Assembly (NCBI GenBank): GCA_965285935.1
Contig: OZ260663.1
Span: 77,252,001 to 77,316,000, forward strand
Length of the DNA stretch: 64,000 nucleotides
Source of the DNA: Ophelia neglecta
Taxonomy: Eukaryota
Reading direction: 5' to 3'
Part shown: positions 201 to 58,849 of the stretch, piece by piece
Numbering within the stretch: position 1 is the first letter of the stretch
Layout: each line of letters starts with the position of its first letter
Made by a program: the position numbers and the translations under genes
The notes under the pieces: model-generated
The model's database searches: none
What the model was told of the DNA's origin: nothing
The model's input: the letters and a program-made list of their open reading frames with translations, nothing else

Positions 201-3200
201 ATTCATTCCGGGTTTGTGGGAGTTTGACAACGGTTTTTTCAATACTTCACCTAAAGAAGCATTGTCCATGGACCCTCAACAGTACCACGTCATGGAGGTA
301 ACTTTGTCGTTAGAAATATCTAAATTGCTTACCAATTATTCTTTGTACAACGCCTACCTCGCATTTATATTCCTAGGTGTTTTCTTTAAAATAAAATCAT
401 ACTGATATGTAGTAAATCTAATCGCCTAGCTATATACCTGATATTTTTTTAATATAATATATGTATTTTTGCACTATAGGTGACCCAAGAAGCCATGCAT
501 GACGCCGGTATGACATCTGCCAATATCCCCGTGAACACCGGGGTGTACATGAGTATGAAAATGGGTGAGCAGACCCTGGTGTGTGCCGAGAACCCCAACA
601 TCTTAAACCCATACATCCTCACAGGCGGCGCTCACACAGTCACAGCAAACAGGTAGGCAAACTACGAGAGCTAAAGGCTTCAATGTTTGAACACTCGTCA
701 GATAAATTTGATGACGCCACGGAGTTCGATGTATTAACTTTTTAAAGGATGGGAGTAGCGACAATGGGGGCTTAAGCTTTTAAATTAGACCAATGATTTC
801 ATGGTTCGTTTTAATATTTAAATTTCAAGAATCAGATTTCTTCTTTTGTCCGATTCCTATATTAACAAATGTAAATTAAGGAATTAAGGTTAAACTCACT
901 GCCGGTTAAAAAGGGACAAAAGCTTAAATGGTCTGTTTTTTTAACTGTTGTTTTCTTTTCCAGAGTGAACTTCTTTTACGATATAAGCGGCCCCAGTATG
1001 GGCGTGGAGGGCGCCTGCGGGGCAGCCGTTCACAGTATCCATTTCGGGGTGTGGGCTCTATGGAACAAAGAGTGCGATGCGATGATCGTGGGAGGCGTTA
1101 ACCACGTGTTGTCGCCACATTTCAGTGTCCAGCAGTGCGATCTCGGCTTTCTCAGCCCCAGTGGAAACTGCTCGCCCTTCGACGCCAATTCTGACGGCAG
1201 GGTGCGCGCCGAAGGTTGTGGAGTCATCATTCTTAAGACACTCGACGACGCCATCAAGTAAGAATAAAGAAATGCAACAACAAGAGGCTCTCATTACTAA
1301 ATAGTCTACCTGTATTCAAAATTATAAGTGCGGCTGGGCTTTCGCGAATTATTTTTAGCCCTCATTTGATGTTAAAATATTATATCGCTCTACCTTTTTA
1401 CATGGTTTTAAACATTTTAAACTATAATTCAATTGTTCCAGAAACAATGATCATGTATATGCCTGCATTCGGGCTTCTGCGCTTGGTTACCACGGAAAGC
1501 AGATGAACCTCCAGGACCACACATCTGAAGGCATTAACAATGTTATCTCGCCGCTTTATGATCGTTTCGGCATTAAACCAGACGACATCGACTACGTTGA
1601 GTGCAATGCCACAGGTAAGCATGGATTTATTTAGCCACTACATATATGTCGCTCACGCTAGAAATGTATCTCAAAGGCTACAATTTATAATTATGAGGAC
1701 AAAGTGTAACTGGAAGCAAAATGTATAGTTTTCTTCATTGCTATGGGTCTTGACAATCTGACGAGTATTCAATTGAATGGGAACCTAACGGTCAATATTT
1801 ACCCTTGTGTTTAGTATCTATTATCTGCAAATCACTTTTAAAAACACTCGTGGCTCCAAATGGCAATATTCTTCCATCAACTTCACGTGACCTCTTGCTG
1901 TTTTTCTCCCAGGGAACACCAAAGAGGACTTCCCGGAGTTCGAAGCAGTCGACTTGTTACACAAGGAAAGAAAGAACGCTGTCCGGGTTGGCTCAGTGAA
2001 AGGCAACGTCGGACATCAAGAGAATGCCTCAGGTATACTAATTTTCTATCAGATGCATTAGTCGCACTTTCTTTGTCAACAGAAATATGAATATAGCAGT
2101 AATAACAAGAAGATGACATGGCGTAAATTGCATGTGTCACCACCATACCAAGTTTAAACTACATTCTCATTGCAATATATCCTTGCATAATTGTTTCTTT
2201 AAAAAGAACCGTTTATTCCATCAATAGGAATGATGCAGACAATAAAGTGTGCCTTGATGTTGGACCATGAGGAGTTCTATAGCCAGAAGAACTTCAGTAA
2301 GAAGCATACTACGATAGAGGACCAAGGATGGCGACTTCAGGTACAAGATCAGTATGAGAAATACGACAAGGAGAAAAATATGATGGTGGCAGTCAACACG
2401 ACAGCCTTCACTGGACAGGTAGGATTGTGATTTGGCAACAATAAACTTATTTAATTTCTCCTCAAAAAAAATCTAGCTCATATTAGTCAATGATCCCATT
2501 TTGTAGATTATTAAACAGTTCTTATTCACACATTTGATGTAAAGTTTGCTGTTTGTTATAAAGGTGTGCCATTTAGTGTTGGAAAGTTACCGACCCCAGA
2601 TCGAGGCTCTGGTAATGAAGGATCTTGCTGGTTGGACATTCGGTGGAAACGATAGTGGCATCATGATTCCCATCACCATTACTGCTAAGACAAAGAACGC
2701 CCTGAAGGACCTGGCCAGGAAGTGGCTGGACTTCGAACATGAAAATGATGCAATGAGTATCGCTGGATGGCTGTCTACCAGAAGAGACCATTACGTCAAT
2801 GTAAGGATCAACCATTTCTGTGATATTTAGCTATGTTGTTGAAGATGTGTATACCCCCGACATCAATTGCTTTAGTTTTAGCATGAAGTGAAATGCCTCA
2901 CGAGTTTGAAAAAGAAGCGGTTTTAAATCTTTTACTTATTTACAGCGTTTGTGTGTAACTGCTAGATCATCCGATCACTTCCGGGAGTGTTTACGCAAAT
3001 ACATTGAAGGGACACCTTGTGATGACGTAACCGAAGGGGCAGCCCCAAACAAGTTTGAAGCACCAAAAATATGTTTTGTTTTCCCCGGCCAGGGACAACA
3101 GTGGTGGAATATGGGCCGCGAACTGTACGCTACCGAGCCGCTCTACAGGGACATAGTTGACAGGTTAGACTAACCATTGTGCCACTCAAGAACACAGCTA

Positions 3201-6200
3201 TTGGCTATTCAGATCAATTAATCACTTGAATATGTCTGAAATTTACTCATTCTATTTATATCATTACAGATGTGACGTCATATGGGAGGCGAACAGCGGC
3301 TACTCCTTCAAGAGGAAGGACGGCTTGTTTGTCGCCGACCCTGCTGGCTTGGATCCAGAAAGAATCGAAGAAATTATCGTCTGCCAGCCCGCCATTGTCT
3401 CTCACCAAATCGGCTTGGCTACCCTACTTATGCACTGGGGTGTAATACCAGATATTGTACTTGGCCACAGTCTTGGAGAGGTTAGTATTGCTTGAAAGTT
3501 TATTTTTTACTGTTTTGCCTAAAATTATAGTTATAAACTTTCCGAGTGTGAAATCAGCATGACAATTAAGACAACCAGTATTTATAACTGATTCTGAAAC
3601 TGTGCCTATAGATTCCTTTTTTCTATATAGGTAGCAACAGCATACATGGCCGGAACAATGACCTTGGAGGAGGCAATAACAAGTATCCACATCCGAGCGA
3701 CCTCCCAGAGCAAACTTACTGGCTCGGGCCATATGGCAGCGGCTAGGTAAGTTGCGTAAGCGTCTTCAGTATCTGCCTTTGAATAACACATTGCTCCCAG
3801 CAACCAGCGACCGTATACTGATACGGTTGTACTTTTCAAAACCTCTGGTTACACGTGTTGTGTCTTTGTTTCAGATATGGCCCAGAAGCAGCTGAAAAAA
3901 TGTGCGCTGGTTATGATGATGTATTCGTTGCCTGCTACAACTCCACAGAAAACGTCACTATTGCTGGTGCCAGACCAATCATGCGGCAGTTGGCTGAAGA
4001 ACAACCCACAAAATTAAAAATTATTCGCGTTCAGGCCGCTTTCCACACTGTGCTGGTTAATCCCGTGAAAGATGAATTTTATGAAAGAATGCAGGGTAAA
4101 TACACACCAAAGCCATGCAAAGATGAGCCCATTATGTACTCAACCGTCGTCAAAGACAAGCACAAGGGACCATGCGACCCTGATTATTGGTGGAACAATA
4201 TCTCCTGCCCAGTATTCTTTGTCCAGGCCAATAAGGCGCTCTTCCGAGATTATGGAGACAATGTTGTCTTTGTCGAGATAGCTTCAGCCGCCACATTAAT
4301 GTCTTCCATTCGACAGACCGCAAAAACATGCGGAGTCAGCCCCAAGGGGTACGTGGCCTGTGGCCTGAGGGGTAAGGATGACCGTTTTGCAGCCCTAAAG
4401 GGAGTGAGTCAGCTGTACGCCATGGGCTTCGATATCAACTGGGCCAACGTAACCAAAAATTGCTCCAGATACACACGTCTGCCAAAATACCCGTTTCAGA
4501 GTGTGCACTATCGTTTAGAGGCATCCCAGTTTACCAACCGACGACTAGGGCGAGAAGACAAATCTTATGTTGGCAGAAACGGCGAGATATCCTGCAATAT
4601 GCACCCCTTCCTTGCTGACTACTTGCTGGAAGACAAGGCACGTCTGCCCTCTTCTGGATCACTGGAGTACTTGGCTGAGCTGGTAGCTGATAGGGTGGTA
4701 TTGAAAGATATCACCATTCATGACAACCCTGTAATGATGACTGCGAAAGAAAACATCATCTGCGATTTCCTCAGTTTGTGGGTGGATAGCAAGATAACAG
4801 GAGACGAAGTGGCACTGAGGAGGAGGGACGACCTATCCCGCATTGCAACTGCCTATATCACCAGTGGGGGAAATGAAAATATCCCAGCGTCATTTGACTT
4901 ACAGGCAACTCGCAGTCGCTGTTCCACAAGCTTGGATGCCGACGAATTCTACAAGAACTTGGCAGTCAATGGGTTGTCCTATGGTGAAAGCTTTAAGATC
5001 ATGAACAATATCAACCTTGGAAGCGATGAAGCCATTACAAGCCTCAAACCAGAAGAGAATAAATATGAACGATTGAAGACGGTGTCCCTTGATGGTTGTT
5101 TCCAGCTGGCGATGGCTTCCTTTGGCTCCGGATCTCCTGCCCTGGTGAAAAGAATCAAGTACCTTGAAATGCTTGTCGATCGCCTACCAATGAAGCAAGA
5201 CCTGAATGCAGTGGCGATTCTAGTTGACTGGACGCCTTCTGCATTCATAGCAGATCTCTACTTGACTGACGAGGAAGGCGGTGTTCTTGTTGCACTCAAG
5301 GGCGTCTGTTTCGAAATTTCTAAATCCAATGTCACAAATGGAAATCTATTGGGAGATCTTTACACAACAAAGCTTGAAAAGGTTGGCATTGCCAACAAAG
5401 AAGTTCCCAAGACTCTGCAGGTGATTACATCTGGTGAATACACAACACTCGTCAACGAGCTGAAGTCAAACATTAGTGGGGCTGTTAGCACATCGCTGAA
5501 AGAGCTGAAGTCTGTAAACGAGGAGAGGCTTCAAGGTGCGACTTTGCTTTATATTTGGAGTCCAAAGCCATCTAAGAACCGGCGGGTATCCAGAAATGAG
5601 GCCAATGTTAGGGAAGGAGAACTTGATCAGTTGATAGAAGTAATTGAGTACTGTCAGATGGCGGCTCGTAAGGCTGACTTCACTCTTTGGGTGGTATCAA
5701 TCAGCGACGCCCCGACTACTGCTGACGCTATGGCCACTGGCTACCTCAGGAGCGTAACGAGCTCTCTGTCTCTACGACTCAATCAACTCAGTCTAACTAA
5801 ACCTGACTCAGGGGCCATTATCAAGGCGATCTGTACTGACTCAAACGCAACCGAGTACATTGGCGGCACTTCTGGCCTGAGCAACCCCATTGTACGACAC
5901 TTCACCACGGCCTCGCCGGCTCCTACTGGCGCATGGGATCTCAGCTTGGGATCTTCATCGACAAATAACGGATATGATCACAACGAAGCCAACTTTTGTA
6001 AAATGGACAGGGATTGGCTTAATAAAAGAAGGGGGATACATGAAAAATATGTCAAGGAAGAAGTTAAGAAGAGCACGGTCAAAAATCAAATATCCAGAGT
6101 ATATAAGGCCAAGGAGATACGGCCATTGAAATCAGGATACGCAAGGATCGCCATCCAAGCAATTGGTACAACAGATGGTGTCATTCAGTGCGCAGGTATT

Positions 6201-8351
6201 GTAACCGACGTTGGGTCAGATATGAAACAGTTCAAGACAGGTGACGAGGTAATAGCCTTACGAGCCAATACATTGACATCCTCTCTGGTGTCCAGCGAGA
6301 GAAATCTCGTTGCCAAGCCTTCAAAGTTGTCCTGGGCCGAGGCAAGCTGTTTTGGTCTTACATATGGCACGGCCTACCACACCCTAGTAGATATGGCTGA
6401 GATCCAGGATGGCGACACTGTCTTTGTCCACCCCACTGATAACGCTCTGGGACAGGCTGTTGTACAGATCGCTAGGTTAATGGGTGCCAAAGTGATTTGT
6501 TCTGGCAATGCCAGTGATCTAATCAGTAAGAACGGTATTGTAACGGTGGTAAATCCCAACTCAATCACATTGACCCGAGACATTCTTCAGCACACGGGGG
6601 GACGCGGCGTGGACATTGTGGTGGACACCTCGGGCGCCTCTATGAGCCAGGAGCTGATGGGCTGTGTAGCCGAGGATGGCAAGATCTGTCTCATTACGCT
6701 CAGCGGCACTAAACTTGCAGACTTCACAGTGTCTGACAGTATTACTACCATAGTTGTAGACGGCAGTGATCTGCTGAACAGAAACCGAGAATGCCTTAAA
6801 GAAAGTTTGAAAGAGGTGTCAAAGCTGGTTTCTTCTGCTGAAACGGGATCTGCCCAGTTGGCAGAAACCTCCTTAGCGAACATGAAGACCCCATTATCAA
6901 ATACAATTCAGGTGACTACAGTGCCTGAAGGGTTTGTTCCCAATAAGGTGGAGTATGGTAATCTGGGTCTTCTAGAAGATGCCACATACGTTGTAACATG
7001 TAGTAGTAATTTGCTCTCCCAGGCTCTGGTTGGCTGGCTTTCAGAGCGAGGCGCCAGACACCTGGCTCTTATCTCGGATGGTTCCGGCACTGCTCTTCGT
7101 CACCGCCTTCTTGTCGCTGGTCTGAAGTCCGCTGGAGTCAAGGTTTACGAGAAAGATGCTGACCTTACCAAACCCGACGAAGTCAAACAGTTCATGAGGT
7201 ATTTGGAAACAGAAGGAGCTCCTTGCATAAAAGGCATTTTCTACGTCGGCCTTCCCAGCCCAATTGATACACATCTCCGACAAGCGTCAGACACCGTCAA
7301 CGGTGCTACAAACTTGCACAACGAACTGCAATCCAGGAATGTCGTCCTTGATCATTTTGTTGTATTCTCTGATGCCGATGCTATGGTAGGATGTGCCAAG
7401 TCAACCGATGCCGTTGCAGCCGCCTGTGCCATGGACAGCTTTATTACTGAGATAAAGAATGCTGGTCTTCCCGGTCTGTCCCTGAAGATAGGTGCCATCC
7501 TAGGATCCAGGCGAGGAACATTCAGCACACCACTACCCGTTGATAACTACCTCTCAACCTTAGACGTCCTCCTTCAGGATCCCAGTGTCCCCGCCACTGT
7601 ATGTGCAGCCCAAATGGTAAGTTGAAATTTATTTCTCCACTCGATATTTCAGAAAGGCTTCATTTGATTTTTTGTTTTGCCTCAAACTAATACTTCAACT
7701 TTATTAAGGTAGTTATCATTTTAGCAATAATCTAATATTTATAATATTTCTTATTCATTCCAGTATTGGACTGCCGCAGTGCAAAATAATGCCAGAAATA
7801 AACATTCATTCGAGCACTTCGTTGAAACATCTTACCCAGCTAAAGGTAAGGGCGCTTTTTGTTACATATTTCCTATTGTATTCATGGTTTGCATAAGTGA
7901 CCTCTCAAGATTTAGACACATCGGAATTAAAATGTTCTGTTTTCACGTATCCTAGCCTGAATAATATAATTTTTGGTATTTTATAACGTACTGACTGACC
8001 TCTTCGTGAGGAGGGTTCCTCTTCTTTTGGGGTAAAGTGGCTTGTTCTGTACTGATGATTCGTTTGGCTGACATTGTGTTTACACTTTCAGCATTAGACA
8101 TTATGGGAGAGGAAATAGCAGACCAGGTTATCGACTACCTGCTGATGCAGACCGGATGGTCTGCTGACTATTTTGACTACTTTGAGAAGATCCCCATGAC
8201 CGAGTACGGTGTAGAATGCTACCTGCTTAGAGAGATGAACGTCTGGCTACAGAAGAGGTACAATGTGGCCGTGACACGCGATGACCTAGAATCGGGTCTC
8301 ACGGCGGAAGGCCTGGTAGAACGCATTCAAAAAGCATGCGGTGTCTTGTAG
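201..8351 (+). CDS. Type I polyketide synthase / FAS-like megasynthase (KS-AT-DH-ER-KR-ACP), 13 exons in window, 5'-incomplete; most domains appear catalytically degenerate
   Basis: Exons with GT-AG ends and consistent phase: 201-297, 480-652, 964-1257, 1442-1614, 1913-2032, 2228-2418, 2564-2800, 2946-3163, 3270-3480, 3631-3746, 3875-7616, 7764-7845, 8092-8351 (~1970 aa, TAG at 8349-8351). Motifs: FDNGFF..MDPQQ, ANRVNFFYDISGPS, EGACG, PFDA..RAEG, GSVKGNVGH (KS); VFPGQGQQW, GHSLGE, AFH (AT); LPKYPFQ linker; LDGCFQ (DH); TGGRGVDIVVD (ER); WLSERGARHL (KR); C-terminal ACP-like helical domain. Confidence 0.93.
3875..7616 (+). CDS. 3.7-kb exon of the PKS encoding the AT C-terminal half, DH-like, KR structural, ER-like and KR-like domains
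   Basis: Core of ORF 3855..7625; acceptor ttcag at 3870-3874, donor GTAAGT at 7617; uninterrupted frame with PKS domain motifs in canonical order. Confidence 0.92.
8092..8351 (+). CDS. Terminal PKS exon encoding an ACP-like domain lacking the phosphopantetheine serine
   Basis: IPMTEYGVECYLLREMNVWLQKRYNV aligns by eye to ACP consensus PLxxxGxDSLxxxELxxWLxxxF; acceptor tttcag ending 8091; in phase with exon 7764-7845. Confidence 0.8.
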
Positions 8352-23938: not shown

Positions 23939-24390
23939 TCACGATCTCCGGTTGTCCATCGTGTAGTCGTCATCCAGGCCCACCACAGCTGCCGGTTTAT
24001 GACGCAGAGGTAAAGTACTCCTGGGCAGCGTTCCCTTGGAGTCAAGCTCGAAATACTGCGGGTCTGCCCTATTTCTGCGCAGGGGGCGCGGCGTCTCGTA
24101 TATATGCGCCTGTGTGAACTCTTCTTCCGGTGAAAACTCATCTACTTGAGTCAATTCCATAGAATCACATCCAAATATGGGGCTTGTGGGTTCTGGGTCC
24201 TCAATATGGCCATCGAACAGGGTATCATCAAAGAGATTACCAGGAGGGGGCGCCATTGGCCACATCTCCCTCACATAGGCATAGTCGTCTTCCTTTGACT
24301 TGTCCTTCCAATGGTCCTTCTCCTTGTCACGTTCCTTGGAGTTCTGATCCGAAGTGGATGATTTATGCGGGCCTTTCAATGTGCCAGTTT
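23939..24390 (-). CDS. Receptor last exon: cytoplasmic tail with Tyr motifs (DYAYV, HIYETP, QYFELD)
   Basis: Part of ORF 23939..24448; acceptor cttcag immediately before 24390, phase 1. Confidence 0.8.
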
Positions 24391-27300
24391 CTGAAGCAAG
24401 TGCAAATTGAGCGGAAATCAATACAACTGCCTCGAAATAGAACTGCATACCAAACGAAAGTGACAGGAGAGACCGTTGTCAACGTACTAAATAAGGTTAT
24501 GGCAGCCGACATTGTGATGTCCGGCATAAAGCCAGGAGCGATGAGTTATATCAAAAAAGAATTGACTAACGTGTTTTCTTGTCATCAAAACACTAGTTTG
24601 AGAGGCGTTTCCACATTATACCTTCATATTAACCCAGTTTAATGACTAGCTGTGCACATAGGCCTAATACCTATAGGCATTATGTTATAGTAATTAGGTA
24701 TAAATGTTCAGTATAAAGAGAGTGTATTAATAGCCGACCTGATATGTAGGTTGAGAGGCGTTGTTGATGAAACTCGTCATGATCTCCTTTGGCACTGCCA
24801 CTACGGATACTACTGCCGTCGTCACGGCGTTGCTGCAGTTCAGTGAACCGAGCCTTCTCCAAACGGCGGGACCGTTTCACCTTCTGCCTGATAAAAAAAG
24901 GACAAAACTTTGAAAACAGAGGGGTGTAATTTATTGTTAACGAATAAAACTTATTTCCATTGACTGAAAGAAGCTAGCCATTTCTTAAATTGTCTTCCGC
25001 CTTCCCGAGAAAAAAGTGTACCCGATGGCTTTTTTCATTATCTTCTTTGAGAAAGAAAATCTAGTTCCGGTTCGAATTGAACTTGGCTACAGTGCGAACT
25101 CTACTGAAGAAATAATGTAAGTACAACTTCATTTATAAGGAGACAACTGGCAGGAAAAATTGCTGGCCAAATCCCAAAAAAGGAATTGCTCAGAGTCTAA
25201 AGGCAAAGAGAAATGCAGATGTTTGGTGATCAGTTTAAGTCATGAATATGTAAAGAGAAACCCGTTCGCCAAGTGATCTTCGTGTAGCTGGCAGGTGTGG
25301 TAGTCTTTTGTTCCGGTCTTTGCCTGTTTTCTTCAGCACTTAAGTTTACATGTGCCTGGTGCCAGAAAAATGGCTTTCACGACTCTGTGCTTGATATTTG
25401 AGCTAGCGAAATGCATCAAGTGTATGCTTCAATTTAATTCAATTGTTAAATTAGAGGAGGACTGAATGCCCAGAGTTTTTTTGTCTCCACTAATATCGAT
25501 TATCAATAGGCCGAAAAAATAGGACCAAATACAAGATACAATAATAGATTTTAGTTTGTTCAATGAAAATTTCCTTGGCGAAAGTAATACCGAAATGAAC
25601 TTCTTGTTCAGACAGAAACTAGAGTGCAGGTGTTTGGACAATGTCTGAGGTGTATGTAAAAAAGCCATTAATAACTCTAATTTATTAGGGTCAACTCTAA
25701 TTAAAAATATTTATTGTAGTCCGATTTATAGGTTCCTACTACCTGACTAGATAAAATGTTGAGAGTTAAGAACAGCTGTGCTTTGAGTAGATGTCGGATA
25801 TGTAAAATGACTGGCTTGTCCGGTTATTTGATTTGATTTGATTTGATTTCTTTATTCCTCCTTAGTAGGAGAGTTACAAATGAACAAAATTAATACGTTA
25901 CTATGTACAATAATTCACACATGACATAAAACAAAAGACAATTAAATTTAAGTATATTGTTGTACATTCGACACCGTTTATACATGTACAACCCATTTAT
26001 CATATATCACATATTGAAGGCCCATCACACTCAATTTGTACCCTCAACTACTGCCAATGTCTTATGCATTGACAAGCTTGTTCTTACGAGCTTGGTATAA
26101 ACTATAAATCTGAGAGGCGACAGCGCTGGCTGACTCCCCATCTCCCGCCAGGAGCCATTGCATAATGTCTGGGAAGGACCTGGTGTGGCTAGGGATCAAC
26201 CCGCGAATACCACTCCTGTCTACCTCCAACACAGGACACACTAACAGGAAATGCTTTGCATCTTCTACTTCAGAGCGACATAGTCTACAGAGCCTTGCAC
26301 CCCGTGGGATGTTCTCATATCGTCCCCTTGTCACTTCCAGATCCGAGTCCTCCAAAACCAGTTTCACCATGACTCGACACGCTGATAGCGCCGCGGGAAA
26401 TTTCAAAGACAATTTCCACCATCTGCTCATTTCCAATGAACCCCCTATCTTCCAAAACGTCTTTGCGCCAGGAAACACAAGGCAGGCTGCTCCGAGGTGT
26501 TGTCCCGTAGCGTAGGCAATGGCATGCTTCACTTGCCGTTTCCACTGCAATTTGGAGGGGATCGCACCTCGATAAATGGAGTCGTGTAGCAGATGGGACA
26601 GCCGAAACTTATGGCATGTGTCGATCATCGATGAAATCGGACCCGAACTGGATGGTTTAGCTTGTCCCAAATCATCTTCTATTACCCTGTATGTAACCAT
26701 GGTTCGTAATTGGGAACCAGGAGCGGCGCTCAACACACTATGTAGCAAGATTAACCGAAGGTAATCCAGCTCACACTCCAGTGGCCACCATCCTAGTGTA
26801 GCATAGCTTAGCGGCCCAGCTATATTTGCGGAGATACGCTGAAACCGTTTCCCGGCCTGTTTGTGAGCTCTCTCCAATCTATCAGTGTCGACCGAGCGAA
26901 GTTTAACCAGCTCAAGTCCGTACAGAAGACTCGGCATGACAATACTCTTGTAAAGTTTACTGGCCACCGCTGGCTGGACACCGTGGGCTGTGCTCCCGAC
27001 ACCAAACATAGCGTTTGTCTTCCTTCTCGCAGCAGACACTCTCGTCTCTATTACCTCACTGACGTAAGCGGGCGACGGAGACAGGGGAATACCAACGTGA
27101 CCACACCCTTGCGAGGGATTGACTTCCTGGTCACCTATCCGTAACGGGCGGTGGACGTTGGTTCTCTCTGCGGGAGGATGAAAAACCATATATACAGATT
27201 TACTGGGATTAAAGGAGAATCTCCAGCGTCGACTATATTCCAGGGTCGCATCCATCAACTTCTGTAGGTTGTTCAAAAACAAGGCCATGAGGGTTATGTC

Positions 27301-30300
27301 ATCTGCGTACGTCGGATTGCTGCAGGATGAGTGGAGGATTTGTGTCCCAACGTGCATCGCCTCCAAGGAGTTCAGCAGCTCGGCGCTGTAGACCTGATAT
27401 AGTCTTGGCGAGAACTTGCCTCCCTGGAACACCCCTTGCTTGATATCAAACCACTCCGATAGCATGGGCCCGATTCGTACCGCACATCTAAAGTTCATGT
27501 ACCAGAGCCGGAGCAGCCTCCACAGTTTCGCATTGATGCCCTTCTGGAAAAGTTTGAAAAACAACCCGTCAATCCAGACCCTATCGAAGGCCTTCCGAGT
27601 GTCTAACGATACAGCGTGCACGGAGCTTCCGCGGTCGTTATTGTAGGCTATGACCTCACGTACCAACAAAGACGCGTGTTTACTGGAGCATCCCTTAAAG
27701 GCGGCAACCTGTAGTCTCCCGAGGCGGTCGTTAGAAAGGAGCCAATCGTCACATCTGGCAAGCAAGGCGCCTTCGAACAGCTTGCAGAAAATAGTTAACA
27801 GTGTAATTTTCCTGTAGCTGTCCTTCTTGGTGGCATCTTTTCCTCCCCCTTTAAAAAAGGGTATGGCAATGCCTCTACGGAATGAGTCCGGAATGTATTC
27901 GTGCCTCACAATGCTGTTTAAAAGCACCGTTAATGCCACCGCGGTCAGTTTCCCACCGTAGTGGACGTGTTCAGGATCCACTTGATCGTGGCCCCCAGCC
28001 TTGTTGCACTTGACTTCTCTCATCAGGTGCATGGTCTCCTCTGGAGTGTATGGCTGAGTGAGAAATGGGCAAGTGTTGTACAATGACTGTTTTTCCATCT
28101 GGACTACATCACGCTCGACCCTGGCTTTAAACGCGCTATCGAACTCCTGGTCATTCGAGGGTGTGGCTAAGTCTTTAAAATACCTCCTCCACTCCTCACA
28201 CACTCCTTCCGCCGATACGATCCGTTCACCTACGTCCGAGTGTATAGGGTTTACTCGCGGTCCTTGAGGAGCTTTTCTTCGTTTGTTTACCAAAAACCAG
28301 AAGTACCTTTGGTCAACCTCATGTGATTCACACAAAGTTACTTGTTCATTGTGCTCATACTGGAACTCAGCTTGCCTTCTTTCCCGCCGGTACAGTCGCT
28401 TAGCTTCTTTGTACTCACGGTAAAGGGTGTTGTTCACATCTCGAGGTCTACCGGCAGCGTCCCACTCCCATTTCTTCCCGATGTTTTTGCGTTTAGCCTC
28501 CTTTAATGTCTGACTCCAATAAGGCTTAAGGTAGGGCTTGTAGCTTGATCGGGGCAAGTTTCTCTCGGACACGCCGCACATCACTCTCGCTAGGTCCTCG
28601 GCAAAGCTAGATATTGTTAAGGGAGCAATGACAAGCTCGTGCAAATTGCCTGAAAATGAGTAATCGCTGTAGCTATGAAGCATGTCGGCTATCTCTTGCT
28701 GTAGTGGTTCCGTGTATAAGTGGTTAACAGTCTCAGGGGTCATCTTGTGCCATCGTGTTTTCGGCTGACTGGTTAGGTGACGATTGACATGGGTGAGGCT
28801 ATTAATTGACAAAGACATTTGCAAGGGCAAGTGGTCCGAACTGTTTTCAACACAATTATTAACAACACACATGGATTGAATCATTTGTACCATAGAATTA
28901 GAAATTACACAGTGGTCGATATATGACATTCTGCCAACGCTGTTACAAAAGGTGTAAGTTGGCCCTGAACATAACTCAGTTAAATCTGCTATAGACAGTG
29001 ACAGCTCGTTACATAAATTTCGCAGAGCGTTACCATTTTTGTTTGTTGTTCCCCAACCCCTAGGACCACATTCCGGGCCGAGATGAGCATTAAAGTCCCC
29101 CATCAATACAACAGGTCCCTTCTCACGGTAACGACAAGTGATTTCATATAATTCATCAAATACATCATCAGAATTGCTGATTTTACAACTGTCATACGGC
29201 ACATACACACATATAATATAAATAGCTTGTTTCCCACAACTCACACGTACACCAACCAGCCTATCTGAGAAGGTATCAATCACAGTTGATCATATGCCTA
29301 TCCTAGTTAAAAGCAATAAGCAGAAATAACATCTGGATGCATGGTAACTCCTTTGAGAAGTGTATAGGTGATAGATTGAAGAGAGAAGGAGCGTTTTCGT
29401 GTGATCCAGTAACTAAGCTTGTAGCACTTTTCTCCTGCTTTATCAAATAAACCAAATACGATTAAAAGGTACCTCCTTACATCTTAATGCGATAGCTTAC
29501 AATTCGGAGAAAGTAATGTATCTTGCTGAAGTACTGGCTGGCCTTACACAAGACTCCCAATTCAGCACCGTGCTTATAGTAAGGCCAATATTGTCACCAC
29601 GCCAGCAAATGATTGTGTTTTCTGGATTATATGGAATGTCATAAAAGGATTTCTGGACATTTAACGCATGCGCATTACTGTGAATTTGCTCGTCACTGAT
29701 AATCTGCAAGACAACTAGGCCGCCGCATAAATGCAAAAAAACAGAGTGCTAGCCAATCAGAGCCGTGTTAGACGCTATAGGCCTATAGCGAATTTATAAA
29801 TGTAAAAACATAACCTCATGTAAGCCTACACAGAGATAAAAAGGCATATTAAAAATATTCGTAGCTGCGATACATTCCTGATGAAGCACATTAGTACCCG
29901 ATGCCATTATAAAAGGCCTAGCTAAGAACGGAAAATTTCGAGAATCTGACGAGTGAGTTTAAAAGCGATGGGGAAGGGAGAGGCATAATTATAAATTTGT
30001 CAGAGTGTCCAACGCTTCTGTTTTCTTTTTCATACATTAGTAAGTCTATGTTCTAAGCGTGGTAGCTTCCGCGATGATAGAGGGACGCGCGACAATGCAT
30101 CGAACTTGATATAGCCTATCAATGCAGTGAAAGGTTCGAGTCCGCTATAAACTGGCAGTATCTTTTCTCAGTTTTAAACACTTAATATGTATGTCGAATG
30201 ATTAACAAAAATTCCCGCGGGCAGGTGCCGTTATGGGATGTTGTTGTTCTGATATGTCCCGTTCGTAGCTAGCTACAGGCCTCTTATAATGGCATATATC

Positions 30301-45300: not shown

Positions 45301-48300
45301 CTAGGGGCAGAACCAGGATATTTAAAGGAACGTAGGAGATAGGTCATTTTCCTCCCAAAACTGCCGGATGGGTTCACTTAAGTGGTAAAGTTGGTATTCT
45401 AGAATGAGTTGGTGATAATAGAGGAAGTGCATGAGTTTCTGGTTCTGATTTTGTCGGAGATAATTTATTGCCATTTATTACACTAAGATCAAGTGAGCAA
45501 CTTGTAAAACAAATCGCTATCGAATTGATCGCAGCTCTGGCATAGCGAGGCTTGGCTGCCTTCAATCTCTGCCAGCCAAGATCGACCCGCCACTCTTGGT
45601 TTTTGTGCGAAATGTCTATATAAAAAAATTCTTTTTAAAAGCTTGATCGTTGATATGGGTCCCAAAGGATATGTAAATAGCGATCTTCAGTATTGTGGTC
45701 TTTTGTTAGACAAATATCAATGGTGACAATTGGGAAAAAATTCTAAATTGATTGGAAGCTATTCGAGCGAGGCATAGGTACTCTCACTCTTACTTAATAA
45801 TATCCCGTTCACCATCTCGTTCAACAAACTATAATATTGCCAATTGCGAAAGACCTGAAAGTTTGAAAAATTGTCAGAATCTGTTACCCTGTTCCCTGTC
45901 ATCCTTAGTGACAAAATGTAACACTTTGAAAAATGGATTAGTTAAGCCACTTTAAATTGTTTCAAACAGTCAGAACACCTATCGGTACATGAAAAAAATA
46001 AAATGAGAGGTCTGCATCATCAAATAAAGAGAACAATGAAACCAGATCGACAATCAGTCATTGACCACATTAGCTGCTACACTGGTGAAAACATAGGAAC
46101 TTTGTGAATTTGACCTTGACAAAATAATCTCAATGTCATTGCATTTTAGGCATTCTTATCACCAGAAACCTCATGTACCAACTATTAATTACCATCATTG
46201 TTACGGTTTGGGTGGCTTATTTCTAAAAAGCATAACAGTTGACAGGTAGGACTACTAGGAAAGCTATTGTTGGGTGTCAAACATGATCATTCTATTTATT
46301 CTAAATAATTAGTTCGTAAAAGAGGTTTTTTTGCTTACGGACTCCAATAGTCTTATAGCCTCGATCGAACAGAATCCTAGCTTGTTTGAGGTTTTTGCGT
46401 TAAAATAACTACCTGTTTCCGCATACTTAATAAGTGTTATTGATCTGTTGGAGTGTATGAAAAAATATTGCAGATTATTCTGCAATTTTTTGGGTGAAAG
46501 AAAATATAGTTTTAAACACTATAGCAATTACTTGTATTTCCACTCGACCGATCCATACTTTCACTGTTGTAATGCGGTCAATGAGGCATTCGGTATTTCT
46601 CTGCAGTCAGAATAATGTCGATGATGCATTCGACATTATCGTGCGACGAGAACGCCGCTACCGCACAATATAGCCGAATGCGGCATTGACAGCTTTTCAG
46701 AGTGGTTCATTTTCATTATCAACCCAACCGACCTGACCAACACGTTTGTCCCCTTACTTTAAACGAGAGCGCCCGCCCGATCTTTTCCCCATAACACACA
46801 AAGGAGACCGATAAAAGTTTAGAGGGGAAGGAAATTGCATAAGATACTTAATACAGCAGTGAACGTCGTTTGGACAATGGAACCCTCGGTTATTGGCCAA
46901 ACGACACTAAATTTCAAGCGAACCCAGGAACACTTGGCTCGACAGGCCGAGAAAGCAATATTCAAAATGCGTGGCTTGCAGAGAAAACTCTATCAGTCCC
47001 CTACAGACATACTAGCAGACTTTGAAACGCTTGTAGTACCTATTCTTACGTACGGAAGCGAGGTGTGGGGCTTCCATCATGCACGGGACGTAGAAGCTGT
47101 GTATAATAAGTTCTATAAAGGGACGTTGGGTGTGAAAGCTTGTACTCCTACCTTCATGTGGGTATTGGAGTGTGGTGCGCTGCCATTTAGAGCAAAACTA
47201 GAGTTAAGAATGTTGTCATTTTGGGCAGGTCTTTGCGACCCTAGTAGATGTACAGAGAAACTTGCCACTAAGGTGTTAAAGGAAATGTCAAAGGAAAGTT
47301 ACAGTAATTGGGCATGTTATGTCAGAGACTTGTTGTATTCACTGGATTTACACCAATACTGGAACAGTCAAATTGTGTCAAACAAAAAGAAATTTATGTA
47401 TGTGGTAAAAAACAAATTATTTAATAAAGTTGAAAATGAGTATAAATTGAAATTAGAAGAAAGTAGCAAAGCTAGATTGTATAAAAACCTTGTGCCTAAA
47501 CCTAGTTTAAAACACTGTAACTGGTACTTTAATAACATCGACAGAAGACACATTGTTACTATAACGCGGTTTAGACTCCGCAATCACAGATTGGCGGTAG
47601 AGAGTGGAGACTGGTTTGGTTTAGACATGAGTGAGAGAATTTGTTTTACTTGTGGTGTCCTCGAGGACGAAATTCATTTTGTGTTTGATTGTATAAGGTA
47701 CGCTCATTTCAGAAACAAATATATACTACCAAAGTATCTAGTAATGCAGGATAAGCTTGAGGCACTGGTAAAACTGCTGAATAGTCAAGAACGGAGGGAG
47801 TTAGATAATCTAGGACTGTACCTTACGAAAGCCTTGAAGCTACATAAGGAATATGCTGAACAATTTTTATTAATCACTGACAATGAGATATTTAATTAAC
47901 TAATGCATTACTTTAGGTTTCATTATGTTTAACTTTTGTAGGGTGAGGTTTCAATGTATTGTCGCTAATGTATTTGCACTGTAATATTTATCAGTCGCAT
48001 GTTTTTCTGATCGGCCAATGTAGGCAACGTATTTTGTATAGAGCACAATGCCTTAATAAACTATTGAAATTGAATTGAAATTGAACTAAATTGTTTTATC
48101 AATTCAGGCCGCAAAATGAAATATTAATGGCTGGGCCTGTTTGCAGCGTTTGGCCCTTCAATAAGCAATTTACCCTCGGGAGTTATGCATGCAAACACAG
48201 CCAAGGATCGCCGGAAATCTCGCAAGTCGCATAAAAATGCAAACCATTATAAAGGGAGATGAATATGAGGAGCATAAGAAAGCCGATAAATGTTTTGATT

Positions 48301-51300: not shown

Positions 51301-54300
51301 AAATATATATATATACCGATATATATAACATGTCCCCTATTCATGGGCCTGCATGCCCGTAAGTAAAGTATATTAGGTCAAGCAATATCCACCGGTAGCA
51401 TCGAAAGTCCCGCATACATCCAATTAATTTGGAACTCTTAAATATTCAAGTTCTGAAGCAACCATCCAGGCCGCAAGCACGTGTCACATTAGTCACCAGT
51501 CTCTATCCGAATCGTCCAAACAACATGTGCTAGGGTAAGCATGCTGAACAAGTCGGATGCGGAAAGGGATGTAGTAGATTTGAAGACATGTTCCGGACAA
51601 ATTGTAAATGGCTTTCTTTAACTAGAGTTTGTGATCATTTGCTGGTGAAAAACGGAGATAAGCAGCGGGAAGCCATCGATTTAGACTGCCACGTGAGTGA
51701 CGTCAAAGGGCTCAGCTTTAACCCCGGTTTACACAGAGGATTAAAGACACAGTATATATGGGTTAAGACTAAAGCAACAATAATGCCATGGCTCTCCATA
51801 TTGCAAAAATAAGATTGTGGATAATCGAAACTGTGGGCTTAGACTATAGGCAAGTTAATCAAGTTTATTTTCTCGCCGGTGCCGGTCTGAGGGTTTATTG
51901 AACCTGTTGGATGAAGGACATGCTTCCTTGAGGTATTTCAATCCAGACACTGCAGGAAATTAAAACAGCTGTCCAATTACTCCTTTGTCATAATTGAGCA
52001 AAGCTAAGTTAGACTTGCCTGGTAATATAAATGTTGCTCCAGTACTGGTAAATATTTATTGGCTAGACACATCCCCCCCCCTCACCTTTTGAGTTAAGGC
52101 GGCAATACAGAGTTAGTGGGTTTTGGTCCACAAGCACATGGTGCCTGTGGTTAGGGATATGCGATTCTGGTTTTGGTTCTTATTGGATCAACCACAATAA
52201 AGGTTCTAAGTCATGTTTTATGACTGTGATGAAGGAGGCGGGGACTATAGACAGCACGTTGGCGGGTTACTCTGCTCGTTGTCTTTCTTCAAAAGTAGCA
52301 GCTCACAGATAGGCCTATACTTGGTCCCAGAAACTGTGATTGGTGAAGGCGCTTTGCACCTATCAACCCTCTCTGAGTCAAATGGCATTGAAATAAATAA
52401 TAAAAATAAACTTAGAAATAATTACATTAGGTCAGAATCTCGAAGTTGGAGGGACAGTCACAAAAGTATGCATATGTGATAATTTGTGTTGGGCGGAGAA
52501 CCGGACTATGATTTACACAATGGACTCGTATGTCCGCTGCTCAACGAGTTGGGAGAGAAATTTATTCCTCGATATTTCTGGTTATCACCGTCTCCTGAGA
52601 AACTAATATCACTGTTTCTGTCAGACACTTCTATTAATACTAACTAAGTTCATTTTTAAAGTGCACCAAACACATTTAAGTTATTAACAAGATCAATCCG
52701 TGTAAGACCTGTGAGACAAATTGAATGTGTTATCCATTGAAAGTGTGTTACACGAAAGCATTCAATTATTAATGCGATAATCCCATATAAGATGTTTGGG
52801 CCAAATTTGTATGTTATTCATTTGAAATTGTGCAACATAAAATCGTTAAAATTATCATTATGAACACCGTGTGTAAGAGCTGTTAGTCTTATGGAATCTG
52901 TAATTAATTGAAAGTCTGTATGTACTATAGTGAAAGCTTAAAACCTTGTATACCAGGTTATAGCAATAAAACAATTTGGTTTAAAATTTGATTTGGTTAA
53001 TGCTGCTAGCCGCCAAAATGAATATATGACTGTGCTTTACTATAGACCGTCACGTTTTTTTATCCGAGAACCTATACTCTTCCTCCAATTCCGTGTTGCT
53101 TTATTCTGGCTGTGATAAACCCGCGGTCCAGTTGTACTAAATACCACCCAAAGGGGTTCACGACACGGGCAATATCGATTGTTAGACGGGGGCAAAACTC
53201 AAGGGGGCCAAGATGAAAGGGCGGAATGGTCAATTATGGACAAAATATCCCTGTAGGCATAACGCTGATAGATTAAATATTTTCAGTACGTACATGTCTT
53301 TTCTCGTAGGAAGAGTAATAACTGAAGATTGATCACGACAAACGCTGGAGGGAAATATTCCAAAACGGGACATGTTCTCTTTGTATGCTCATTTTCTCGA
53401 CCGTAGAGATTTACATGCATGTATATAAACGTAAGCACCAGCTTATCTGAAAAAAACATGCATTCCTAAAGTTTAACAAGTAAATAATAAGATTTACCTG
53501 AGTATTTCAGCAAGAAATAATACTCCTTTTCCGTCTCGACATTCCTGCGAGTAATAATCCTAATTTCTATCGAGTGAGACCGAGAGGTGTAAACAGTCCG
53601 CTCTCTGACACTGCCGCCACAGATTTTTTTGCTGCCATTTGCGCGGGACTTTTCCGTGATGATGGCGTACTGGTAACATATTTTTGAGTCGAGGATGTCG
53701 TGTCTGATGCCGGCTGTTGGTGTAGTGAAGTCGAAGAGGGTGACGTTGATCCGCTGCCCCCTCTGAACGGTAATCCTCCAGGGACATTTCAGGGAGCCAT
53801 AGTCGTCTCTCTCCGTGATCACATTGGCCAGGTAGCCCGAGGAGGAGGACAGCTGGATGTACTGGGGTTTTTCAGGATCACATGGCTTATTTCGAGGCAT
53901 CTCAGCTGAAAACGAAATACAATTCATGTCACGGTCGATACAGTAGATGATCTCATATATTATGATCTAACCGGAAAAAGAGAAGAGCGAGCCTGGCATA
54001 AACGATTCAACTATGTGCAAGAAGCAGAATAAGAGAAACAGGCCCGTATTCAGAACGAGTTGCGAATTCCGTACGCCCTCAATCTAAATGAATAAAATGT
54101 TCGTAATTCGTTTAAGTATGTGACCTAGTCGATAACACAAGGGAAGAGAGCCCAAAGTACCTGCTACGAAACGAAATTAAGGCAAAAGGAATCAATTTAA
54201 TACCAATGTTTTGTTGATTTATAAAGCAAAGGAAAATGGCCGTAGTAGATATATACATATAGTTATACATTTTTCATATATAGGCCTAGAGGATATATTT

Positions 54301-57300: not shown

Positions 57301-58849
57301 CCCGTCCCACTCCCAACCCTACCATCGCTTCCCTTGTCGGCGATCAGACCCCTTCCCCTTCCCTCCCCCGACACTGGTTAGTCGCCAAGGTGCAGGGTAT
57401 TGGCGCTAAAGACGAATATGGTTTAGCTTACTCTGTCTTTAGACCACGTGTCAACAAGACAATCAGAGACATCTCCACTCGGAATTATTTGGCCAAAGTA
57501 AGCAAATAACGAAGCCCGCCTCCTGGACCAAGGGCGCCATCTCATTAGGCACACAAGCTGAATTTATCGGTAGAAATGATGTGAGGGCGGAATGTGGCGG
57601 TAAATTGTAGTCAACGAGCTTTGTGACGACGGATATGCTGGTGAATATTGTTTCAATCAGAAAAATAGAGCAGAGCAATTGTAATTTAATAACAGAGGGT
57701 AACGACTGGGTTCTCCCCCAAAATAAATTCAACAATGTTTTGTTTTGTTGTACATCCTACATGCATTGTCATTCATAAACAAAGTCAATGTATAATGTCA
57801 AAATAACGCCCTGAACAAAACACGATTTCCACATTATAAGGTTAGTAAGAAGTGTAATGTATTTATATCTCAGGTTTTCACACGTGTTTTTTATTATTAT
57901 TTTGTTTAATAATAATAAGGCCTTAGTTCTTTTTGATTCACTGGCCTCACTTCTGGGCCCAATCCCACCTCCCACCCTAGTACCGCCCCAAACCGTGTAG
58001 TGCCGCTGTAAGTTACATGGACCCATGCTAGCAGCGGTTCCAATTTATTTGTAAGGCACCTGGTTAATTAGGTAAATTCCGAAAATAAGATGAAAAATCT
58101 GCGTCTGTCATTTCATATTCAAGGTCAAAAAATTGGAATGTTATTTATTTATTGTTTTTGATATAAAGTGATCAGCTCTTTTACCACGCATTAGTGATGA
58201 ATCCTGAATAAGACACTTCCGGTGATTGAATGGTGCGTTCAATTTGGCACTTGAGGGGGGTGAGGGGGCACGAACAAGGCCCTTCAACTGGTGATAGAAT
58301 ACTTGTCGAAGCTCAATCATTAACTTAGTAAATCTCACAGTTGAAGATCAAAATAACAGCCAGAGACTTTAAAGCCATTAAATCCATGAAGTCAATAGGC
58401 ATACAGCCTTACTCTCAAATTAAACTCCTTGAGTTTTGTTCGGGCGTATTTTCCCCCCATTTAACAACTTAGGCATATAATCCTAACGGGTTTCATAATG
58501 GTTTTAAAGAAGGAAAATTACAGTATTTCCTACGGCTTTGGATGTTATGCTGACTCACCTTTTATGCAGGTGTAATTGACCTGGAAGTAAGACTTGAAGT
58601 CAACTGGGCAGTTTGTTTCCGCCTTGTCGAAGACAGCATCCGGTATGTTTATGTTACATCTCCGCTTTCCAGAACAGCGCCTGTCTGTGTGGTCCATAAC
58701 GTCACCGCTACAACCCACGTGACCGTAATCCGTCCGCACACATCGTCCAATGCGCATGCGTCCATAAAGGGCGCTATTTATGAATATCACTCGGTCCTTT
58801 TCTCCACATTCGGCACGAAACGTCTCGGTTTGGCAGAGTTCCTGGTCAT
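23939..58849 (-). CDS. Single-pass membrane receptor: SUEL/galactose-binding-lectin-like + CUB + sushi(CCP)-like + TM + tyrosine-motif cytoplasmic tail; 7 exons found, signal-peptide exon not located
   Basis: Minus-strand exons 58849-58559, 53905-53498, 35651-35490, 33831-33772, 31407-31326, 24887-24739, 24390-23939; all GT-AG with compatible phases (1,1,1,1,2,1), ~533 aa. Additional small exons in the large introns cannot be excluded. Confidence 0.8.
24739..24887 (-). CDS. Receptor juxtamembrane exon (basic stop-transfer QKVKRSRR...)
   Basis: Acceptor tttttttatcag, donor GTCGGC; phase 2 start completes the Trp codon from the TM exon. Confidence 0.78.
25826..29290 (-). mobile_element. 5'-truncated non-LTR retrotransposon (LINE; APE endonuclease-RT-CCHC, RTEX/L2-CR1-like), inserted in a receptor intron in sense orientation
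   Basis: ORF 26062..29283 plus 3' UTR ending in AATAAA (plus-strand tttatt 25851-25856) and an (AAATC)n tail (25826-25849); no TSD evident. Confidence 0.92.
26062..29283 (-). CDS. LINE ORF2: partial APE endonuclease, reverse transcriptase, C-terminal CCHC zinc knuckle (1073 aa, no true start)
   Basis: VYVP, GDFNAH, YIDH, SDHLP (endonuclease); KAGGHD, YRKITLL, LDTRKAFDRV, GVFQGG..SP, YADD (RT); CRLC..EDAKHFLLVC (zinc finger). N-terminal endonuclease motifs are absent and an in-frame TGA lies 3 codons upstream. Confidence 0.93.
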   Translation of the reverse strand: MIDTFSDRLVGVRVSCGKQAIYIICVYVPYDSCKISNSDDVFDELYEITCRYREKGPVVLMGDFNAHLGPECGPRGWGTTNKNGNALRNLCNELSLSIADLTELCSGPTYTFCNSVGRMSYIDHCVISNSMVQMIQSMCVVNNCVENSSDHLPLQMSLSINSLTHVNRHLTSQPKTRWHKMTPETVNHLYTEPLQQEIADMLHSYSDYSFSGNLHELVIAPLTISSFAEDLARVMCGVSERNLPRSSYKPYLKPYWSQTLKEAKRKNIGKKWEWDAAGRPRDVNNTLYREYKEAKRLYRRERRQAEFQYEHNEQVTLCESHEVDQRYFWFLVNKRRKAPQGPRVNPIHSDVGERIVSAEGVCEEWRRYFKDLATPSNDQEFDSAFKARVERDVVQMEKQSLYNTCPFLTQPYTPEETMHLMREVKCNKAGGHDQVDPEHVHYGGKLTAVALTVLLNSIVRHEYIPDSFRRGIAIPFFKGGGKDATKKDSYRKITLLTIFCKLFEGALLARCDDWLLSNDRLGRLQVAAFKGCSSKHASLLVREVIAYNNDRGSSVHAVSLDTRKAFDRVWIDGLFFKLFQKGINAKLWRLLRLWYMNFRCAVRIGPMLSEWFDIKQGVFQGGKFSPRLYQVYSAELLNSLEAMHVGTQILHSSCSNPTYADDITLMALFLNNLQKLMDATLEYSRRWRFSFNPSKSVYMVFHPPAERTNVHRPLRIGDQEVNPSQGCGHVGIPLSPSPAYVSEVIETRVSAARRKTNAMFGVGSTAHGVQPAVASKLYKSIVMPSLLYGLELVKLRSVDTDRLERAHKQAGKRFQRISANIAGPLSYATLGWWPLECELDYLRLILLHSVLSAAPGSQLRTMVTYRVIEDDLGQAKPSSSGPISSMIDTCHKFRLSHLLHDSIYRGAIPSKLQWKRQVKHAIAYATGQHLGAACLVFPGAKTFWKIGGSLEMSRWWKLSLKFPAALSACRVMVKLVLEDSDLEVTRGRYENIPRGARLCRLCRSEVEDAKHFLLVCPVLEVDRSGIRGLIPSHTRSFPDIMQWLLAGDGESASAVASQIYSLYQARKNKLVNA
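29863..30332. mobile_element. Diverged MITE-like element with ~70-bp imperfect terminal inverted repeats
   Basis: agctgcgatacattcctgatgaagcacattag..atgccattataaaaggcct (29863-29930) matches the reverse complement of 30260-30332 (agccgtgatatattcctgacgaagcctattagg..atgccattataagaggcct). Confidence 0.7.
31326..31407 (-). CDS. Receptor transmembrane exon (VSVVIIGGLAGIFGFIILLVALIC)
   Basis: Acceptor ttttttccgcag, donor GTGAGT; about 24 hydrophobic residues; below the ORF-track size cutoff. Confidence 0.85.
33772..33831 (-). CDS. Receptor 60-bp stalk exon (AEVNSSGAMLLWGSISLPY)
   Basis: Acceptor tttgtgtttctccag, donor GTAGGT; phase 1-1, frame preserving. Confidence 0.65.
35490..35651 (-). CDS. Receptor sushi/CCP-like exon (IGCPRPKPPAHGWVER..GCNH..CEGTQWVGALLNCS)
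   Basis: Four Cys plus a Trp in CCP-like spacing; acceptor ttttttatgttccag, donor GTAATC; phase 1-1. Confidence 0.85.
36657..37140. repeat. Copy 1 of a diverged ~450-bp direct repeat (copy 2 at ~40075-40500)
   Basis: Colinear shared blocks tgcacgtgttcagt..caataaa, tgccaaat, ttcatctct, ttgtgctctgact, tctcattgca, ttttcattttta, ggagct.ggga. Confidence 0.75.
40075..40500. repeat. Copy 2 of the diverged ~450-bp direct repeat
   Basis: Same ordered blocks as 36657-37140. Confidence 0.75.
43292..43482. repeat. Degenerate minisatellite built on (aa)ccactacgaac(aaaataataact) units
   Basis: Repeated ccactacgaac / cgagtcactatctaatc / gaacaaaataa motifs. Confidence 0.75.
46835..48085 (+). mobile_element. 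Heavily 5'-truncated LINE (post-RT part of ORF2 with CCHC finger, 3' UTR and tail), antisense within a receptor intron
   Basis: ORF 46835..47899 with VVPILTYGSEVWG, RFRLRNHRLAVESG, ERICFTCGVLEDEIHFVFDC; AATAAA at 48055-48060 followed by an (A)ATTGA repeat tail 48063-48085; the first ~20 codons are probably flanking DNA. Confidence 0.88.
53498..53905 (-). CDS. Receptor CUB-domain exon
   Basis: SSSSGYLAN..CPWRITVQRGQRINVTLFDF..C..ICGG..VYTSRSHSIEIRI..FLLKY; acceptor ttttcag, donor GTAAAT; phase 1-1. Confidence 0.9.
56010..56790. repeat. Diverged local tandem duplication (~56010-56232 vs ~56530-56790)
   Basis: Shared colinear blocks gttaattactg, tgtcaggc, attgtttttct, aaatatat, cccc..gcgatgaagtttg.cagga at ~558-bp offset. 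Confidence 0.7.
58559..58849 (-). CDS. Receptor SUEL-type (galactose/rhamnose-binding) lectin-like exon
   Basis: ELCQTETFRAEC..VIFINSALYGRM..GRC..GC..RCSGKRRC.I......C....SYFQVNYTC: 8 Cys plus the A-x-YGR motif; acceptor ctctag, donor GTGAGT. Confidence 0.88.

Follow-up and report, generated by a model that had tools for sequence, protein, structure and literature searches.

The unusual ketosynthase (KS) at the beginning of the window, the stretch of 64,000 nucleotides from Ophelia neglecta that was analysed, is likely the visible corner of a two-gene animal polyketide synthase (PKS). Judged by the motifs of both genes, gene A, which encodes this KS, is probably the malonyl-loading half of a non-reducing iterative PKS that is split between A and its sister gene B. 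Over the three essential functions the two are reciprocal, A having an intact acyltransferase (AT) with KS and ACP lost, and B an intact KS and ACP with the AT lost. A working set of KS, AT and ACP is found in neither chain, only in both together, and for SpPks1 these three domains are described as necessary and sufficient in the available text of PMC11414698. As A keeps exactly the AT that B has lost, we think that the two likely form one split enzyme.

Gene A is an intact type I PKS gene of 15 exons that encodes 2040 amino acids. Its spliced frame contains a single, terminal stop codon, and each of the 14 modelled introns has GT-AG boundaries. The first two exons are located a short way upstream of the window (L017:9247-9292 and L017:9788-9950), and the remaining 13 coding exons are found within it, with the following features:

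201..8351, plus strand: gene A, in the order KS0-like - AT - DH° - ER° - KR° - ACP°, no TE (Pfam; GT-AG introns and open frame)
201-297, 480-652, 964-1257, 1442-1614, 1913-2032, 2228-2418, 2564-2800, plus strand: coding exons 1-7 in the window
2946-3163, 3270-3480, 3631-3746, 3875-7616, 7764-7845, 8092-8351, plus strand: coding exons 8-13 in the window
201..2418 (start in the two upstream exons), plus strand: ketosynthase, non-condensing by motif
549..566, plus strand: MSMKMG(E) at the position of the pocket-entry motif GM(L)MD, with conserved Gly->Ser, Gly->Lys and Asp->Glu
TGC 1016-1018, plus strand: active-site Cys of the KS, retained, in GVEGACGAA aligned to DTAC
AAT 1605-1607, plus strand: first catalytic His of the KS changed to Asn (VECNATGNTKEDFPE), in YVECNATGN
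AAA 1999-2001 and CAT 2014-2016, plus strand: conserved Lys and second His of the KS, both retained, in GSVKGNVGHQE
2395..2415, plus strand: NTTAFTG for N(S/T)FGFGG, second Phe and last Gly retained
3072..4430 (ends approximate), plus strand: acyltransferase, full length, 313 aa
4548..5390, plus strand: dehydratase-like domain (DH), catalytic His->Tyr (ADYLL, Tyr 4620-4622)
6120..6900 (ends approximate), plus strand: enoylreductase-like domain (ER), NADPH-binding glycine motif absent (PTDNALG at 6432)
6981..7499, plus strand: ketoreductase-like domain (KR), Gly motif (TCSSNL at 6996), catalytic Lys and Tyr all lost
8092..8351, plus strand: ACP-like last exon, GVEC for GVDS, with Cys 8217-8219 at the phosphopantetheine serine

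By motif, five of the six catalytic centres of gene A are lost, the AT being the exception, and the altered KS is thus one of several degenerate domains. Pfam detected KS, AT, DH, ER and KR; a PP-binding match to the ACP-like exon was looked for and none was obtained, and the window holds no second ACP exon for this gene. The pseudo-MT region ahead of the ER is missing (286 versus 505-630 residues). In the AT the motifs FPGQGQQW, GHSLG (Ser codon 3469-3471), the Arg and AFHT (His 4044-4046) are intact, and 75 of 91 family-conserved columns are retained; as the other 16 deviate, including the Arg of NIRxPV, we only infer that this AT is active.

The triad itself was described correctly in the earlier note. 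The Cys in EGACGAA is retained and lies in a clean GT-AG exon, the second His is likewise kept, and NSFGFGG indeed reads NTTAFTG. The Asn that replaces the first His is encoded within exon 1442-1614 and not at its edge. Past the 1614/1913 junction the register is unbroken, and because Asp and Glu beyond it are in register (GNTKEDFPE versus GTPVGDPLE) there is no indel. The earlier note had named different splicing at 1614/1913 as a way in which a His might be restored, but neither flanking intron contains an EAHG-like or HGT motif in any frame. Of 25 related PKSs that were aligned, only A lacks His in this column. The losses in its KS concentrate in its own active-site loops, namely the pocket-entry GxGxxD, the DTAC context, the TxPS loop, HGTGTPVGDP and the FG of FGFGG. 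The GM(L)MD motif, given in the consulted part of PMC11414698 as the pocket-entry motif of echinoderm PKSs, is unmatched in both paralogues (KMGE in A, GIID in B).

Such extensive loss raises the question whether A is a decaying duplicate, a pseudogene in progress, or whether the Asn is an artefact of assembly or splicing. Five of six catalytic centres are gone and A is the longest branch of its clade, as would be expected of a pseudogene. For the variants, contigs of one other sample were used (three runs, DNA-like, introns covered), which gave 194 difference rows, 40 of them listed. Among these 40 rows, 18 variants are exonic and 16 of them synonymous, against 21% expected (p=2e-9), and one of the two others becomes synonymous once the neighbouring change in its codon is taken into account. 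Indel and joint rows are intronic in 13 of 13 cases (12 indels and one joint row, about 9 independent events), introns making up 27% of the span. Gene A, KS included, is under purifying selection; the direction is clear, for one sample and a partial list. As all 8 of the listed variant codons within the KS are synonymous, this domain is not mere dead weight. Moreover, the divergence of A and B predates the radiation of B and is far too old for an unconstrained frame to have stayed open over 2040 codons with 14 GT-AG introns, and the introns beside the Asn hold no alternative His exon. The open frame, the synonymous excess and the restriction of indels to introns led us to reject the pseudogene reading, and together with the artefact reading we regard it as highly improbable.

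The earlier note had further proposed a KS0-like acyl relay rather than a dead domain, and this proposal stands in part. Its premise, that loss of the HGTGT His is the hallmark of a KS0, agrees with the definition by loss of the HGTG His in the accessible passages of PMC7327777. Of 1158 KS matches in the fetched proteins, 1132 were complete at four marker columns, and 38 of these full KS domains, A not counted, have the Cys and the second His without the first. The first His is replaced in them by Gln (16), Ala (13), Asn (4), Ser (3), Glu (1) and Cys (1), a tally in which the alignment register may slip in some cases. With Asn in 4 of 38 natural domains, the Cys-Asn-His combination exists in nature, and the KS0-like signature of A is a real one. 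It is the relay function that fits less well, as A is a single-module enzyme that has lost the serine of its own ACP and whose active-site loops are eroded. It retains 17 of 38 consensus positions in these loops, whereas the 38 KS0s retain a median of 74% and a minimum of 55%; the consensus is mostly bacterial and the animal baseline, gene B, reaches only 28 of 38, so that part of the deficit is animal background. Among the residues missing in A are Pro284 (present in 97% of the KS0s), Gly126 (92%), Ala184 (92%) and Gly416 (84%).

Like A, the KS0 domains of bacterial and algal trans-AT PKSs keep the Cys, the Lys and the second His and lack the first His. Unlike A, they are set in multimodular lines between working ACPs, whereas A is single-module with an intact AT in cis, a dead ACP (GVEC in place of a working downstream carrier) and more strongly eroded loops. 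Nor does A descend from bacterial trans-AT KSs, as it nests within animal PKSs against 6 bacterial and fungal outgroups, in a tree built without KS0 sequences. By motif the KS of A is of the non-condensing type, and by context and descent it lies outside the trans-AT KS0 class.

It could nevertheless act as a KS0-type transacylase, in which the Cys takes an acyl chain, either a starter or the finished chain from the ACP of B, for hand-off or release. The domain has retained the Cys, Lys and second His, the Asp and Glu that follow the first His position and, in the GFGG loop, the second Phe; the Asn has its natural counterparts in the 4 of 38 domains, and the listed KS codons vary only synonymously. 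This PKS family is also without a TE, so that the release step is unfilled. On the other side, A itself lacks a functional ACP, its loop score is below that of all 38 KS0s (on the mostly bacterial consensus), its pocket-entry motif reads SMKMGE, and no orthologue was found that would show the Cys to be conserved. We consider a working KS0 transacylase rather unlikely, and acyl transfer by the Cys as such, from what the residues suggest, still unlikely, although this reading is compatible with a PKS split between A and B.

Gene B was found as the best match of the Cys exon of A within its own genome, on the same contig and the opposite strand at a distance of 1.28 Mb:

G000:C5:75.968-75.976 Mb, minus strand: gene B, paralogue of A

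Its KS is intact (DTAC, EAHGTGTP, FGHLE, NTFGFGG), and so is its ACP (GVDS, PP-binding E 3e-9). As with A, the motifs of DH, ER and KR mark these domains as dead. In the AT the catalytic Ser is changed to Gly (GVGLG) and about 79 residues are deleted, including the His of AFH, which leaves 228 instead of 313 aa; by position we take the deleted segment to be the small ferredoxin-like subdomain. A search with B returned orthologues in six proteins (P0272-P0277) of 48-73% identity, including one from the annelid Paralvinella palmiformis (KAK2166793.1); these relatives, with Owenia P0320, make an annelid host of the window likely. In all six the KS triad is intact, the AT serine is replaced by Gly and the deletion of about 79 residues recurs, and the ACP is intact in both members of the clade in which it is present, B and P0273 (on a 7.6-kb contig). 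Judged from these sequences, the AT lesion of the B clade is old and fixed, and the clade, being without an AT of its own, would therefore need one from elsewhere.

The KS of the B clade is preceded by an N-terminal motif, G(M/V)LKI.D..G.(F), which is present in the B exon G000:C5:75975697-75975604 (L019) and in P0273 and P0275, and absent from A and the outgroups shown; it is possibly a docking element. An AlphaFold model of the KS-AT part of B, built from 7 sequences, had a mean pLDDT of 48, with the KS below 50, and was not used, and a fold search with this low-confidence model returned KS-AT didomains only. A repeat of 82-94% identity occurs upstream of A (L017:3-2302) and, in opposite orientation, about 9-11 kb upstream of B; it is probably a common genomic repeat.

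Phylogenetically, A is sister to the whole B clade, with an SH-aLRT value of 84 in a quick 31-row tree that included 6 microbial outgroups, and with 100/99 in a tree of 18 rows and 1467 columns, for which seven near-redundant or partial rows of the 25 were omitted. The clade of A and B is kept at 95/96 when the KS and AT columns are removed and a mixture model is applied, and the other long row, P0363, is not attracted to it. The placement of A is not without risk, since its branch is long. Next outside comes P0291, in which one gene carries an intact KS, an intact AT and a degenerate KR. A and B have in common the His->Tyr exchange in the DH, which is also found in 5 of the 6 B orthologues, a dead KR and three intron positions, two exact and one approximate. 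Eleven introns of A, all between the KS and the middle of the AT (window 201-3875 and L017:9951 onward), are absent from B; they are likely gains in A, because P0291, P0276 and P0277 are single long frames that run uninterrupted up to the intron common to A and B.

With A as sister to the entire B clade, the duplication would be older than the spread of B, which predicts A orthologues in all carriers of B. Several searches for these returned none. The best match in a protein search for longer relatives was a crinoid PKS, and a search for near relatives gave nothing at E<=1e-40, being insensitive enough to miss P0275-P0277 (E 1e-69 to 1e-81). When the Cys exon was used against 50%-representatives, multimodular proteins dominated the output; in JGI metagenomes 10 loci were matched, at only 24-27% identity, and the ESM Atlas gave only generic AT-DH clusters. 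The KS-AT part of A is split into short exons, which bears on the sensitivity of such searches. The missing A orthologue is the main gap, and the pair of A and B has so far been seen in one genome only. A complete copy of the lineage was not found in this genome either, as searches with the DH of A and the ACP of B return A and B only.

Other PKS and AT genes are present. About 12 PKS genes of another lineage, with an exon of about 2250 codons, lie at 16.9-17.5, 85.8-86.0, 90.4, 93.9 and 95.9 Mb of G000:C7 (L036-L042). Five of these were examined: their AT, DH and KR appear intact by motif, with GLSVG in one AT; none of the 5 has the G.DS carrier pattern, and four carry a long C-terminal region. 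Four FAS-like genes with intact EAHGTG, two of them near-identical, are located at C8:48.76, C8:72.53, C8:76.95 and C5:22.82 Mb of the same assembly, and a mitochondrial-type KAS and a FabD-like AT at C12:3.66 and C5:0.79 Mb. P0363, which clusters with a PKS of Holothuria leucospilota, has lost the DH His (E-Y) and the ER and KR motifs and keeps KS, AT and ACP in one chain; as it falls outside the A/B clade, this is likely a parallel loss.

The reciprocity of A and B extends to their family-conserved columns. In A the AT is better kept than the KS (75/91 versus 100/154, Fisher p=0.003), and in the B clade the KS is better kept than the AT (118/154 versus 45/91, p=2e-5). In the proposed mechanism, the AT of A would load malonyl in trans onto the ACP of B, and the KS of B would carry out the condensation. 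Because DH, ER and KR are dead in both, the predicted product is an unreduced poly-beta-ketone, which would cyclise to an aromatic polyketide as in SpPks1 and CrPKS. The Cys-Asn-His KS of A would be kept mainly as dimer partner of the KS of B, in a heterodimer with one working chamber in which it resembles a chain length factor (CLF); a looser version would be trans loading between two homodimers. In human FAS, according to the available part of PMC12058525, the KS and MAT with which the ACP cooperates can belong to either monomer, so that a one-chamber heterodimer of A and B is geometrically plausible. Tyr147 and Thr150, taken to be ancestral, retained in A and lost in the B clade, map by their offset from the Cys to the FabF-type helix-loop-helix, which in FabF lies over the substrate sites of the two monomers (bioRxiv 10.64898/2026.05.19.726425, in the section consulted); being two positions, they give only a hint of a heterodimer. 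We tentatively suggest, as a possible arrangement, an obligate heterodimeric PKS megasynthase in an annelid lineage, in which, after an ancient duplication, one subunit contributes only KS and ACP and the other only the AT, and in which the KS of A might complete the acyl pocket of B in the manner of a CLF and may use its Cys for holding or releasing the chain.

Some observations speak against a split pair. No A orthologue was found, yet a B orthologue of 73% identity comes from the same collection; the two genes are far apart; other ATs, those of the C7 PKSs, the FAS-like genes and the FabD-like gene, could serve B; and a purely structural role of the KS leaves the retained Cys, Lys and second His unexplained, 65% of its conserved columns being kept anyway. 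The same observations, the other ATs, the non-adjacent genes and six B orthologues without an A orthologue alongside, would also be expected if A and B had degenerated independently. B would then obtain malonyl from FAS, from another PKS or by self-loading, and A would be a free-standing acyltransferase or acyl hydrolase that serves other carriers, or a non-enzymatic scaffold. This leaves unexplained why the one domain that A has kept is the one that B has lost, and why A maintains a 2040-aa frame with a constrained KS. We consider independent degeneration quite improbable and prefer the split enzyme.

The remainder of the window contains an uninterrupted frame of 1075 aa with endonuclease and reverse transcriptase, a LINE-type element, at 26062-29289 on the minus strand. 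One membrane-protein gene on the minus strand likely comprises the exons 58545-58910, 53466-53966 and 23939-24478, which encode a SUEL lectin domain, a CUB domain and what may be a cytoplasmic tail. No Pfam match was obtained for a frame of 358 aa at 46823-47899 on the plus strand; on visual inspection it looks like the C-terminal portion of a LINE protein.

In descriptions of animal PKSs and FAS, the enzyme is a homodimer encoded by a single gene. If the split holds true, A and B would be a fixed pair of complementary pseudo-enzymes, repeating in nature what the classic complementation experiments did with FAS, and would constitute an iterative trans-AT system that occurs naturally in an animal. 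Either gene, annotated or expressed alone, would be scored as dead, and surveys based on the KS only, such as PMC10764717, are unable to reveal such a pair; motif look-ups in 17 of the 18 supplementary files of that study gave no KS of the A or B type, though trimmed alignments can break motifs. The pair would also be a candidate source of polychaete aromatic pigments. Polychaetes have anthraquinones of unknown origin, among them aloe-emodin in Tomopteris (PMC4208949), and hallachrome is listed as a further one (PMC13474988). As CrPKS was reportedly expressed in yeast, co-expression of A and B in the same manner makes an animal origin of these anthraquinones directly testable.

Among known systems, the nearest named full-length matches of A and B are echinoderm, amphioxus and annelid PKSs. 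The literature searched, which was largely without subscription papers, the original SpPks1 paper among them, and had bioRxiv papers without supplements, held no split or AT-less animal PKS. Three fungal cases considered as precedents (PMC6431248, PMC11731387, PMC9787815) are not analogous in the passages concerned. SpPks1 and CrPKS, by their description in the accessible text of PMC11414698 and not by alignment, resemble A and B in the order KS-AT-DH-(cMT)-ER-KR-ACP, the missing TE and a KR without Tyr, the cMT being absent in A. They differ in having all three working domains on one chain that forms a homodimer, whereas here these are divided over two genes. Trans-AT PKSs are alike in that B, too, is a synthase without a functional AT and has to be loaded by a separate protein chain, but the known ones are modular with small stand-alone ATs, whereas here there is a single module, the likely donor is a full-length paralogous pseudo-PKS of 2040 aa, and B retains the large AT subdomain. 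For iterative trans-AT PKSs there was little convincing evidence as of 2015, according to the section seen of PMC4661987.

KS/CLF heterodimers, as in type II PKS and in the anammox pair amxFabF2/amxFabFmut, likewise combine an active KS with a paralogue from the same genome whose triad is broken. The available text of bioRxiv 10.64898/2026.05.19.726425 reports that inactive KS paralogues form heterodimers of this type, with His->Asn occurring in amxFabFmut; there the partners are small dissociated proteins from adjacent genes, the Cys is lost and binding has been demonstrated. Gene A, in contrast, encodes a megasynthase, has kept the Cys and lies 1.28 Mb from B, and its pairing with B is putative. 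The same geometry as proposed for A and B is met in the engineered mutant complementation in animal FAS by Rangan, Joshi and Smith in 2001, in which the ACP was reportedly served by KS and MAT of either subunit, but those were laboratory point mutants of one gene and not a naturally fixed gene pair.
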